Source of the DNA: a virus | Lineage: Duplodnaviria > Heunggongvirae > Uroviricota > Caudoviricetes | DNA: 16,384 nt | Reading direction: 5' to 3' (one strand) | IMG/VR virus record: IMGVR_UViG_2531839530_000004 | In this document: positions 11,271 through 12,525 of the stretch, piece by piece | Numbering within the stretch: the first letter of the stretch is position 1 | Layout of the letters: every line of letters starts with the position of its first letter | Notes under the pieces: model-generated | Told to the model about the DNA's origin: nothing | Database searches by the model: none | Seen by the model: the letters and a program-made list of their open reading frames with translations, nothing else | Program-made: the position numbers and the translations under genes

Positions 11271-11558
11271 CTAGTTGCCGGATGTTGGTGGATTTTCGCG
11301 TTTTAGTTGTTCATAAAAGTGCACAGCTTTAACCAGTTCTTCTGATGTAACTGGGACTGGTGAGGCAGTGAATAAGGCCTGAATTTGATAGTTCGGCCTG
11401 TCGTTACAATCCTCTTTTTTCGGTACATATTTCCAGTCACCAGACCACTACTTCCCCTGAAAGTCCGTAACGCCTTTTTTCACGTAGCGATATCGCCATG
11501 CCACTGGTTTTGCTTGCCCCGCCGTTTCATGCCCTTCCTGATAATTAATCTCGCTCAT
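11271..11558 (-). pseudogene. Small prophage gene (95 codons) interrupted by an in-frame TAG at 11448-11450
   Basis: ATG overlaps the upstream stop (ATGA); reads MSEINYQEGHETAGQAKPVAWRYRYVKKGVTDFQGK-TAG-WSGDWKYVPKKEDCNDRPNYQIQALFTASPVPVTSEELVKAVHFYEQLKRENPPTSGN. The 58 stop-free codons after the TAG contain no internal start, so this looks like a nonsense mutation in one gene. Confidence 0.4.
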
Positions 11559-11746
11559 TCATCGCCCCACTCATCACAATATGCTTCGACCGGAGTTTTT
11601 CCCGCTTCATAGTCATCACGCTAGGATTCGACATCAGCAGCACTTCCACCGCGTAACTCACCATAGTCCATTAATAGTTCATCCCGCTCTTCAAAACTGA
11701 TGTTATATTTAGCTGAACAAAAATCAGCCACTTTGTTCTTCCTCAT
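11555..11746 (-). pseudogene. Small prophage gene (63 codons) interrupted by an in-frame TAG at 11621-11623
   Basis: AGGAAG ribosome-binding site precedes a GTG at 11731 (ATG at 11746 also in frame); reads ...ADFCSAKYNISFEERDELLMDYGELRGGSAADVES-TAG-RDDYEAGKTPVEAYCDEWGDE, ending in the ATGA overlap with the next gene. Confidence 0.3.
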
Positions 11747-11795
11747 CGTCTTTTATTTCGTGGTATGAGTAATTGCAGTAGTTAAAGAAAATTTC

Positions 11796-11906
11796 TTATG
11801 CTCCGTCATGAATTTCCTCAGGTGTTGCGTCATCGTCCACTTCGAATACATCCTCAAAATCTCCACCAGCTATTCCCGTTTCAATAATAATTTTGAACTT
11901 TCGCAT
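11796..11906 (-). CDS. Candidate small acidic protein (36 aa)
   Basis: ATG at 11906 opens MRKFKIIIETGIAGGDFEDVFEVDDDATPEEIHDGA; weak ribosome-binding site; a GAAA-loop hairpin (CCGCCC-GAAA-GGGCGG) lies just upstream. Speculative. Confidence 0.25.
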   Translation of the reverse strand: MRKFKIIIETGIAGGDFEDVFEVDDDATPEEIHDGA

Positions 11907-12168
11907 TTCACTACCGCCCTTTCGGGCGGCCTCCTGATGTTCTGAGGGTGCAGAAATCCATCCGGTTAAGGATTAAATTTTATTTACAGAACTGAATTTA
12001 ATTATTCAGATATACGTATCTGTAGCCTTACGAATCTACTCACTGGATGCCTCTTTCATAAAAATAATCCAGTGGGTTTTATCGTTTTTTCCCTGTTCGT
12101 TGACAGATAACAGGTTTTCTGTCTGTCAGTGCCAGAATCTGGCTTACCGGTATTTGCGTTTCATTCCA

Positions 12169-12525
12169 TTAAAAAATCAGAACGCCGTGCGGCCTCAACA
12201 CCCGAAAGGCTTCTTTAAATCTCTGTCGCGAATCATCACGCCAGGCATCTTTATTCAGCCGTCCATATTTCTTTCCCATCCAGGCGTTATCACCAACACT
12301 CTCAAGATGCGGAGGGTCTAATACAACCATCGAAAAAGATGCGTCTGCAAATGATAATGCACGAAAATCTGCGATAATGTCAGGGCTGATAATCAAGCGT
12401 CTCCCATTGCGTAATGTGTATCCTTCTTTTCTGATATCGCTGAATATCGCCCGTTCGTCAGACTTATCGAACCAGAACATGCGGCTGCCACAGCACATAT
12501 CAAGAATGGTTGCCGGTGCACTCAC
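12169..12525 (-). pseudogene. AdoMet-dependent methyltransferase-like fragment (118 aa) ending at an in-frame TAA
   Basis: Product has a degenerate motif-I-like DMCCGSR and a motif-IV-like VVLDPPH in gamma-class order. The frame continues past the TAA (ATTTTTTAATGG, consistent with AAA to TAA) for about 28 more codons; even read through it is too short for a full methyltransferase. Confidence 0.45.

Follow-up and report, generated by a model that had tools for sequence, protein, structure and literature searches.

The stretch of DNA analysed here (16,384 nucleotides, hereafter the window) belongs to E. coli and represents its cryptic lambdoid prophage Qin (Kim). Copies in strains SX12 and 042, the former collinear with the window, are 99.8% identical to it and occupy a site that runs from ydfI to rspB, and through them the element can be placed at the Qin integration site between ydfI/ydfJ and rspB. 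The end of the window itself falls within int. RefSeq annotation of the collinear SX12 copy contains the Qin gene set, with cspI, rzpQ, rrrQ, essD, cspB/F, ydfT, ydfU, rem, hokD, relBE, ydfV, flxA, xis and int. On the minus strand of this prophage lies a block of four genes containing five in-frame stops (two TAA and three TAG). The sequence-only reading had described three genes with one stop each; a fourth gene, encoding a DUF7167 protein, had been missed, and two of the remaining three genes carry further lesions.

Genes of the block and their flanks

The first gene is a pseudogene of a small phage DNA methyltransferase (MTase; 12036–12525, minus strand), delimited by alignment to intact alleles. 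Its intact form is 157–162 amino acids long, and the open reading frame in the window is shortened to 118 by a premature TAA at codon 119 (12169–12171, minus strand). Intact alleles have AAA (Lys) here, and across 116 MTase homologues conservation of Lys119 is at least 90%. That the gene stops at a TAA and its frame stays open past this codon had been correctly noticed, but the TAA was misplaced by 3 bases: positions 12166–12168 are the following TGG. A second lesion, the insertion of one G in a GGG run (12091–12093, minus strand), shifts the frame by +1 at around codon 145 when the sequence is aligned to the alleles M8 and 08-3918. The PHROG profile phrog_954 ('DNA methyltransferase') matches residues 5–157 of the intact M8 allele with E = 2.5e-84, covering the full length of the family, and by eye the motifs LDMCCGS and DPPH resemble the SAM-binding motif and the (D/N)PP(Y/F/H) motif, respectively. 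In Pfam, Methyltransf_11 scored 20.2–20.5 bits against a curated cutoff of 21.2, and a profile search of the PDB with the methyltransferase alignment gave no solved structure better than E = 0.26 and hence no structural assignment. The putative DNA-methylating function is a label drawn only from database annotation. The protein database holds 6,685 MTase homologues, and even the closest intact one, out of 5.8 billion proteins, shares no more than 88% identity with the window allele. Of the 99 positions with at least 90% conservation, 10 are changed in the window allele, compared with a mean of 2.0 and a maximum of 9 in the 116 intact homologues.

Next comes the DUF7167 pseudogene (11724–11906, minus strand; 60 codons; Pfam PF23768, phrog_1997), which is interrupted by a premature TAA at codon 37 (11796–11798, minus strand) where intact alleles have AAA (Lys). 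A profile search with the read-through translation, a check proposed in the sequence-only reading, matched PF23768 at 50.0 bits (E = 3.1e-13), well over the Pfam gathering score of 24.4. In strain 042, RefSeq describes the gene as 'DUF7167 family protein, internal stop'. Its stop codon overlaps the start of the third gene via GTGGCTGA, and the stop of the third gene overlaps the start of the fourth via ATGA; the overlaps behind the translational coupling that had been proposed for the small genes are real.

The third gene (11555–11731, minus strand; phrog_519) is a pseudogene of a 58-aa phage protein. It had been read as a 63-aa gene, but is a member of the 58-aa family in which the ATG start has become GTG (11729–11731). 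Its premature TAG at codon 37 (11621–11623, minus strand) replaces the TGG (Trp) of intact alleles, and changes specific to the window allele number 8 non-synonymous and 3 synonymous in addition to the ATG>GTG start. The fourth gene, supposedly of 95 aa, is what is left of a phage gene for a 171-aa protein (11137–11558, minus strand; alignment, and phrog_660 with E = 1.9e-74 for the intact allele). It carries a premature TAG at codon 37 (11448–11450, minus strand), where the intact allele has CCG (Pro), and its presumed natural stop at 11271–11273 is a second premature TAG, CAG in the intact allele. The TAGs at 11621–11623 and 11448–11450 lie exactly where they had been reported. Alignment also reveals two deletion scars (11239–11285, minus strand): a 90-bp in-frame deletion at ~11285, between two near-repeats each encoding 'NPP', and a 4-bp frame-shifting deletion at ~11240. 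RefSeq describes this gene as 'frameshifted; internal stop'. None of the four proteins in intact form matched a family in NCBIfam. RefSeq flags three of the genes (171-aa, DUF7167 and, in strain AH21, the MTase) as pseudogenes, and the decay is to this extent already annotated; the 58-aa gene is unannotated in the records that give its neighbours as pseudogenes.

The block is flanked by an IS element and by a deletion of ~4.6 kb, evident from comparison with the fuller copy PhiR42_1. The junction of this deletion (12762–12771) is a 10-bp imperfect repeat, GTAGCCGGAG / GTATCCGGAG. Two genes described or implied as intact in the sequence-only reading are in fact cut by it. Upstream of the MTase gene, a DUF977 gene is reduced to a C-terminal remnant (12522–12788, minus strand; 88 of ~140 aa), whose match to PF06163 is limited to profile positions 62–134 of 134 and which RefSeq calls 'incomplete'. 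On the plus strand, the 3'-5' exonuclease gene (12754–14745) is truncated at its N-terminus, the full form in PhiR42_1 and strain 042 being 823 aa (2,472 nt). The deletion also took the replication and immunity genes (dicA, dicC, dicB and neighbours), in which respect the window copy differs from K-12-type Qin. A scan for promoter-like sites gave 4, compared with 4.4 in shuffled sequence, and thus no excess; terminator-like sites were modestly above shuffled sequence (6 versus 2.1, sd 1.7).

In-frame stops and accuracy of the sequence

For each of the five stops, homologues have a sense codon at the equivalent position (AAA, AAA, TGG, CCG and CAG) and homology continues beyond the stop. Full-length forms are covered to their ends by PHROG profiles and, in the case of DUF7167, by the Pfam profile. 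Judged by this homology, the stops are genuine premature stops and not natural gene ends. The expectation that intact relatives would carry sense codons at the MTase, 58-aa and 171-aa stops first reported was borne out (AAA, TGG and CCG). Two A>T substitutions, one G>A, one C>T and a double change CC>TA gave rise to the stops, and a shared mutational signature was rejected on these grounds. Codon 37 is the site of a stop in three consecutive genes (DUF7167, 58-aa and 171-aa); a mechanism behind this coincidence is rejected for now, since the three lesions arose by different mutations, lie in unrelated sequence surroundings and are not of the same age.

Sequencing or assembly error in the window would be a trivial source of such stops, and it has nothing to recommend it beyond the general possibility. 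The 1,401 bases spanning the block (11130–12530) are identical in the independent assemblies of 042 and SX12, and AH21 is identical over the same interval except for an IS1 insertion there. PhiR42_1, a phage record from ECOR13, is 99.9% identical over the interval, and hundreds of further genomes match a stop-reverted version of the block (see below) at three mismatches. The probability of an error is therefore negligible, and this explanation is already refuted.

A different reading holds that the stops are read through, by means of an amber-suppressor host or tRNA or by reassignment of TAG, such that the genes would still be expressed at full length. There is a superficial likeness to stop-recoded (TAG = Gln) and amber-suppressor phages, in that three of the five stops are TAG with the frame open on either side, and the public gene call of a near-identical contig (L016) rendered TAG as Gln in protein P0164. 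However, the L016 DNA itself reads TAG, and P0164, which would represent a 58-aa gene variant with Gln37, was rejected because its Gln comes from the gene caller, which probably picked a TAG-recoded genetic code. The remaining two stops are TAA, such that there is no consistent stop type, and the same genes contain the +1 frameshift and the 4-bp and 90-bp deletions, which leave no intact frame to be read through. Conserved MTase residues have drifted, the window contains no tRNA gene and hence no suppressor tRNA, and the E. coli host uses the standard code. An amber-suppressor history, which the sequence-only reading had entertained as a lesser alternative, fails on the same points. We regard read-through as extremely improbable and as effectively refuted already.

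Distribution and age of the decayed block

Qin is present in ~48% of Escherichia/Shigella genomes, where its size is highly variable and many mutations are found (PMC6379469). The decayed block is present in 482 of the 5,426 complete E. coli genomes searched, including ATCC 8739, W, 042, IAI39, CE10 and O55:H7. As a query for an intact ancestor we used the block with all three stops reverted, and in the same 5,426 complete genomes every full-length copy of the Qin type differed from this query at three or more positions. One candidate for an ancestral intact MTase allele, P0005, has Glu at codon 119. It was rejected: the metagenome contig that bears it (1,490 bp) departs from the window solely by T>G at 12171 and retains both the frameshift and the window's own deletion junction, which makes P0005 the result of either a later mutation from stop to sense or faulty assembly, and not an ancestral allele. 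A 2-kb query across the block matches K-12-derived records over no more than its final 39 bases, inside the exonuclease gene, which indicates that K-12-derived Qin is without the block. In strain 042, the copy has kept nearly all of its head, tail and terminase genes. A literature search on PhiR42_1, a 48.7-kb Qin-like element, returned nothing.

The prophages of SX12 and 042 differ at 11 positions in ~15,900 bases (0.07%), whereas the adjoining rspB-rspA region differs at 26 of 1,500 bases (1.7%). Between these two strains, the prophage is thus ~25-fold less diverged than the neighbouring chromosome, and this large difference indicates that the decay predates the spread of the prophage type. 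Fixation of the decayed block would have come before the spread of this prophage type through E. coli lineages, and the block would have been carried along since.

Related elements carry subsets of the lesions. Strain 21220 has none; F5505-C1 and phage 640R1 have lesions in the 171-aa gene only, and phage 606R7 in the 58-aa gene only; contigs L014 and L015 have lesions in both the 171-aa and 58-aa genes; and Qin-type copies have lesions in the 171-aa, 58-aa and DUF7167 genes together with a broken MTase. The MTase gene is absent from all of these sources other than the Qin-type copies. Contig L015 has a recombination breakpoint near 11700, and for this reason a clean order of events is only partly accepted; with this breakpoint and possible recombination, the apparently stepwise series is not a clean phylogeny.

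Decay probably started in the distal 171-aa gene, because related phages have this gene broken and the two genes upstream of it still intact: the TAG at 11448–11450 is common to F5505-C1 and phage 640R1, both of which have that arrangement. In a translationally coupled operon, a stop lowers the expression of downstream genes (nonsense polarity). The hits in this coupled operon are therefore not independent, and the run of independent nonsense mutations invoked in the sequence-only reading is doubtful, all the more so since the distal gene was already dead where upstream genes are intact.

Probable relaxed constraint and possible selection for loss

Taken together, it is very likely that the block consists of four decayed, non-essential accessory genes of Qin, and that this is ordinary decay under relaxed constraint. 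The four genes would have been needed neither for phage propagation nor by the host, such that purifying selection lapsed and lesions piled up, with the stops having no role in recoding, suppression or regulation. Other E. coli prophages and phages hold intact versions of all four genes, and this lineage has gathered five nonsense codons and two frameshifts, together with the 90-bp deletion, the weakened start and an excess of amino-acid changes. Relaxed decay was one of the two explanations favoured from the outset, and it fits the several lesions in each of the two longer genes (a frameshift in the MTase gene and two deletions in the 171-aa gene among them), the start-codon change, the drift at conserved MTase sites, the lesion subsets in related elements, and the flanking IS and deletion.

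The number of stops is compatible with this explanation. About 3.8–5.6% of random substitutions in the block genes create a stop, and ~3.1 stops are expected in three genes compared with 3 observed, an expectation which is an upper bound in that it assumes every Qin-type allele-specific change to be neutral. Against it, changes specific to the window alleles are overall 31 non-synonymous and 31 synonymous plus 3 stops, where full neutrality predicts ~3:1. The near equality of the two classes suggests that much of the divergence stems from a constrained period, or else from recombination with divergent alleles.

The other explanation offered initially was selection against expression in the lysogen. 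If expression of these genes were harmful, for example through a clash between the MTase and methylation-dependent restriction, then knock-outs would be positively selected. Such adaptive loss would account for the independent MTase nonsense mutations, Lys119>stop in the window and Trp95>stop in strain 08-3918, for the recurrence of the 58-aa Trp37 stop on at least three allele backgrounds, and for the concentration of decay in the block. However, E. coli is rich in intact MTase alleles (clusters of 256, 1,099 and 271 member sequences), 58-aa alleles are predominantly intact (the largest cluster has 491 members), and the stop count matches the neutral expectation. Recurrence at Trp37 is moreover expected from mutation alone: the 58-aa protein has no Gln, and neither of the two Arg codons that the alignment shows is CGA, which leaves its three Trp codons as the sole routes to a stop by transition. 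Of the other two, Trp16 would on mutation leave a peptide too short to call, and a stop at Trp55 is nearly harmless. The operon should, in addition, be silent in a repressed prophage anyway. We therefore consider adaptive loss unlikely; it is not needed to explain the block, and the abundance of intact MTase alleles and the neutral-like stop count lean against it as a general rule.

Decay is confined mainly to the block, the other prophage genes of the window being intact, and to explain this concentration relaxed decay must further assume dispensability of these genes alone. The recurrent Trp37 stop and the separate 08-3918 nonsense mutation can also be read as selection for loss. A more specific proposal, that selection has switched the operon off in lysogens or that 36-residue N-terminal peptides are retained, seems quite improbable. 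It is based on the recurrent Trp37 amber, the independent MTase nonsense mutations and the cutting of three genes at codon 37, and a possible driver of the switch-off would be a conflict of the phage methyltransferase with methylation-dependent restriction by the host.

Under relaxed decay, the block can be compared with the nin region of phage lambda, a set of non-essential genes between P and Q of which the nin5 deletion is viable. The block occupies the same map position, downstream of replication genes and upstream of rusA/Q-type genes (in Qin, between the replication genes and hok / DUF968 / Q), and both consist of small, overlapping and translationally coupled genes that vary between phages, although the gene content differs. 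For the four genes of the block, we infer dispensability from the frequency with which they are broken. The process appears to be the same as the pseudogenisation or 'grounding' of defective prophages, as this is cited in PMC6379469 (Lawrence, Hendrix & Casjens 2001; Bobay et al. 2014): point lesions, small indels, IS insertions and deletions occur in unselected genes, and useful or addictive genes (here relBE, hokD and the csp genes) stay intact. There is no material difference; at most, the decay in the block seems for the greater part older than the spread of the prophage type.

One RefSeq protein in wide circulation, WP_001310834.1 (118 aa, annotated as 'class I SAM-dependent methyltransferase'), is the truncated product of the MTase pseudogene and not an intact enzyme. 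The block provides a natural allele series carrying subsets of the lesions, and is best seen as textbook accessory-gene decay in a cryptic prophage, with little significance beyond housekeeping.

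A Qin prophage shortened by deletion

In 5,426 complete E. coli genomes, megablast with either the region or the whole window as query found collinear copies of 99.8-100% identity; the element is Qin (Kim), a cryptic lambdoid prophage. The copy in strain SX12 sits between ydfI and rspB and carries, in order, cspI, rzpQ, rrrQ, ydfR, essD, cspB, cspF, ydfT, ydfU, rem, hokD, relE, relB, ydfV, flxA, ydfW and a partial ISNCY transposase, followed by the four-gene block considered here, truncated DUF977 and 3'-5' exonuclease genes, excisionase and integrase. Qin is present in 48% of Escherichia/Shigella genomes, ranges from 11 to 97 kb and is frequently mutated (review, PMC6379469). 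Two Rfam cspA thermoregulator matches (431-816 and 3326-3718, minus strand) lie upstream of cspI and cspB, an arrangement that is ordinary for the cold-shock genes of Qin. A small ORF between ydfU and rem differs from that of PhiR42_1, a phage record from ECOR13, by a 12-bp in-frame indel (CGCCCGTGCGTG; 6523-6534).

Fuller Qin copies are found in strain 042 and in PhiR42_1, where the exonuclease has its full length of 823 aa and the replication and immunity region is kept (an O-like gene, a ydaT-like gene, dicC, dicA, ydfABC and ydfD); dicB is additionally annotated in 042, whose copy retains head, tail and terminase genes as well. The sequence-only reading took the genes flanking the block to be intact, but DUF977 and the exonuclease are both cut by a ~4.6 kb deletion at a 10-bp imperfect repeat (GTAGCCGGAG / GTATCCGGAG; junction 12762-12771), which took out the whole immunity and replication region and fused the last 88 codons of DUF977 (12522-12788) to an exonuclease without its N-terminus (12754-14745). 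The 677-aa ORF starting with TTG is an artefact of this fusion and not an intact exonuclease gene.

An Rfam sok antitoxin match (104 bits, E=4e-23; 10576-10747, minus strand) lies next to ISNCY, with no hok gene beside it in the window. In L015, a related metagenome contig, the sok leader runs directly into an intact 70-aa Hok and then rem; in the window, ~3.3 kb (ISNCY, ydfW, flxA, ydfV and relBE) lies between the leader and a shortened hokD (7039-7303). This separation agrees with the published account, in which integration of relBE truncated hokD (PMC6379469).

Lesions in four consecutive genes

Three consecutive genes had been proposed to carry one premature stop each. A fourth, DUF7167, lies between the methyltransferase (MTase) gene and the 58-aa gene, so that four consecutive minus-strand genes are affected. 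The MTase does end at an in-frame TAA, located at 12169-12171 rather than at 12166-12168, which is the TGG after it. The stop is premature: intact homologues have Lys (AAA) at codon 119 and run to 157 aa (strain M8) or 161-162 aa (other E. coli alleles), and the PHROG profile phrog_954 ('DNA methyltransferase') spans the intact form to its end (E=2.5e-84). It is also not the only lesion, as a +1 G insertion is present at 12091-12093. The C-terminal '...KEASSE' extension was ruled out as a further lesion because it matches the natural 162-aa allele type. The MTase module is joined at ~12009, and the nearest intact MTase in a collection of 5.8 billion proteins is only 88% identical.

The DUF7167 gene (11724-11906, minus; Pfam E=3e-13; phrog_1997) has a premature in-frame TAA at 11796-11798 (minus), where intact alleles read AAA. 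Just upstream of its start (11906), the minus strand at 11914-11935 contains AGGAGG and then a perfect 6-bp hairpin (CCGCCC-GAAA-GGGCGG), 8 bases downstream of which lies the ATG. The stem is the same in each of the four related alleles compared, one of which has an altered loop base, and the hairpin, lying between Shine-Dalgarno and start codon, could be a translational-control element.

The TAG codons at 11621-11623 and 11448-11450 (both minus) had been placed exactly and are premature, although the genes that hold them had been misjudged in size. The former, in a supposed 63-aa gene, replaces Trp (TGG) at codon 37 of a 58-aa family, the intact form of which is spanned to its end by phrog_519 (E=4.5e-23); this allele also has its start codon changed from ATG to GTG, and its specific changes comprise 8 non-synonymous versus 3 synonymous. 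The latter replaces Pro (CCG) at codon 37 of a 171-aa gene, spanned to its end by phrog_660 (E=1.9e-74), of which the supposed 95-aa gene is the front part. Here too there is more than one lesion: 90 bp are deleted in frame near 11285, a further 4 bp near 11240, and the supposed natural stop at 11271-11273 is a premature TAG (CAG in the intact allele). Codon 37 is thus the site of a stop in three genes (DUF7167, 58-aa and 171-aa), each of which is left with a 36-residue product; successive stops lie 175 and 173 bases apart. Coincidence is the most likely explanation: the mutations are of different kinds, the sequences around them are unrelated and the lesions are not of one age.

Decay, recoding and selection

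Over the 1,401 bases that cover the block (11130-12530), 042 and SX12 match the window exactly, AH21 does so except for an IS1 insertion, and PhiR42_1 is 99.9% identical, which excludes sequencing error as the source of the stops. At least 80% of the block is present in 482 of the 5,426 genomes, including ATCC 8739, W, 042, IAI39, CE10, UMNK88 and O55:H7. A 611-base query was made by restoring sense codons at the three stops that are specific to the Qin-type alleles. Its best full-length matches across all 5,426 genomes had exactly three mismatches (99.5%), so in none of these complete genomes is there a full-length Qin-type copy in which even one of the three has been repaired. A metagenome contig, L011 (matching 11388-12877), has T>G at 12171, turning the MTase TAA into GAA. 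It is otherwise identical to the window, including the frameshift and deletion junction, and was therefore rejected as an ancestral intact allele; the GAA arose either secondarily, as a stop-to-sense change in a pseudogene, or through an assembly error.

Suppression or recoding, by which the stops would be read through, is not supported, and the amber-suppressor host history raised earlier as a less likely alternative falls with it: TAA (two) and TAG (three) both occur among the stops, the same genes contain frameshifts and deletions, and the window is without any tRNA gene. A public protein, P0164, has Gln at the TAG of the 58-aa gene, but this apparent sense allele is a gene-calling artefact and the DNA reads TAG. 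Its source, the Logan contig L016, matches 10722-11944, and the run of in-frame TAG codons apparently made the caller choose a TAG-recoded code; calls of this kind may be one way in which phages are falsely labelled 'recoded'.

The suggestion of relaxed decay is borne out by drift at conserved MTase sites, several lesions in each longer gene, a stop count at the neutral level and subsets of the lesions in relatives. The MTase departs from consensus at 10 of 99 positions conserved at ≥90% (H36Y, C39R, D40N, P58S, V66M, F69L, R76S, T94A, G102R and the stop at K119), against a mean of 2.0 and a maximum of 9 in intact homologues (n=116). A random single-base change in these genes produces a stop in 3.8% to 5.6% of cases, giving an upper bound of ~3.1 expected if all allele-specific changes in the MTase, DUF7167 and 58-aa genes were neutral; with 3 observed, the count is unremarkable. 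The 8:3 ratio in the 58-aa gene and the distance of the nearest intact MTase also point to relaxed constraint, but summed over the three genes, allele-specific non-synonymous and synonymous changes stand at ~1:1 rather than the ~3:1 expected under full neutrality. Some of the divergence must therefore be older than inactivation or have arrived by recombination.

Among relatives, all three of the 171-aa, 58-aa and DUF7167 genes are intact in strain 21220. F5505-C1 and phage vB_EcoS-640R1 have the first TAG and the 90-bp deletion in the 171-aa gene only; phage vB_EcoM-606R7 has the Trp37 stop in the 58-aa gene, an intact DUF7167, and a 171-aa gene with Pro at codon 37 and a different C-terminus. 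Contigs L014 and L015 combine lesions in the 171-aa gene and the 58-aa TAG with an intact DUF7167; Qin-type copies have lesions in the 171-aa gene, the 58-aa TAG and the DUF7167 TAA. The MTase is left out of this comparison because all of these sources other than the Qin-type copies hold a different gene there. As read from these alleles, the subsets look like cumulative decay but do not form a clean lineage: L015 has a divergent haplotype that gives way to a Qin-like one near 11700, indicating that lambdoid mosaicism has shuffled the pieces.

That inactivation of the block was itself selected appears improbable. An independent MTase stop at Trp95 in 08-3918 and the occurrence of the Trp37 stop on at least three backgrounds speak for it, but intact MTase and 58-aa alleles are abundant in E. 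coli and the mutation spectrum predicts the Trp37 recurrence. The 58-aa protein has no Gln, and neither of the two Arg codons that can be seen in the alignment is CGA, leaving its three Trp codons as the sole transition routes to a stop.

Known status, mechanism and spread

The earlier observation is confirmed in part, with relaxed decay as the correct half of its interpretation; a known prophage and the known process of prophage pseudogenisation match what is seen here. RefSeq labels the 171-aa gene 'frameshifted; internal stop' and DUF7167 'internal stop', and in one strain, AH21, it gives the MTase the label 'frameshifted; internal stop' as well. The sole annotation gap is WP_001310834.1 (118 aa, 'class I SAM-dependent methyltransferase'; 12169-12525): most genomes annotate it as intact, and it is the product of a nonsense-truncated, frameshifted gene with intact relatives of 157-162 aa.

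The lesions are fixed in the Qin prophage type, and intact alleles of the block genes exist elsewhere. The lambda nin region is dispensable. The block occupies the same map position, and by this analogy its genes would likewise be dispensable and purifying selection on them may have lapsed. The translational coupling read between them is real; nonsense polarity in such an operon would let downstream decay follow upstream stops, making the run something other than the independent events first proposed.

Between SX12 and 042, the prophages differ at 11 of ~15,900 aligned bases (0.07%) and the adjacent rspB-rspA chromosome at 26 of 1,500 (1.7%), a divergence ~25 times lower in the prophage. Decay of the block must therefore have come before this prophage type spread through the two host lineages, and the comparison implies that the window's Qin type recently spread horizontally or underwent a recombinational sweep. 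We infer that the dead genes were carried along by a still-transmissible phage or by recombination of the locus, and that other prophage genes stayed intact because phage viability was under selection or because they later proved useful to the host (relBE, hokD and the csp genes).
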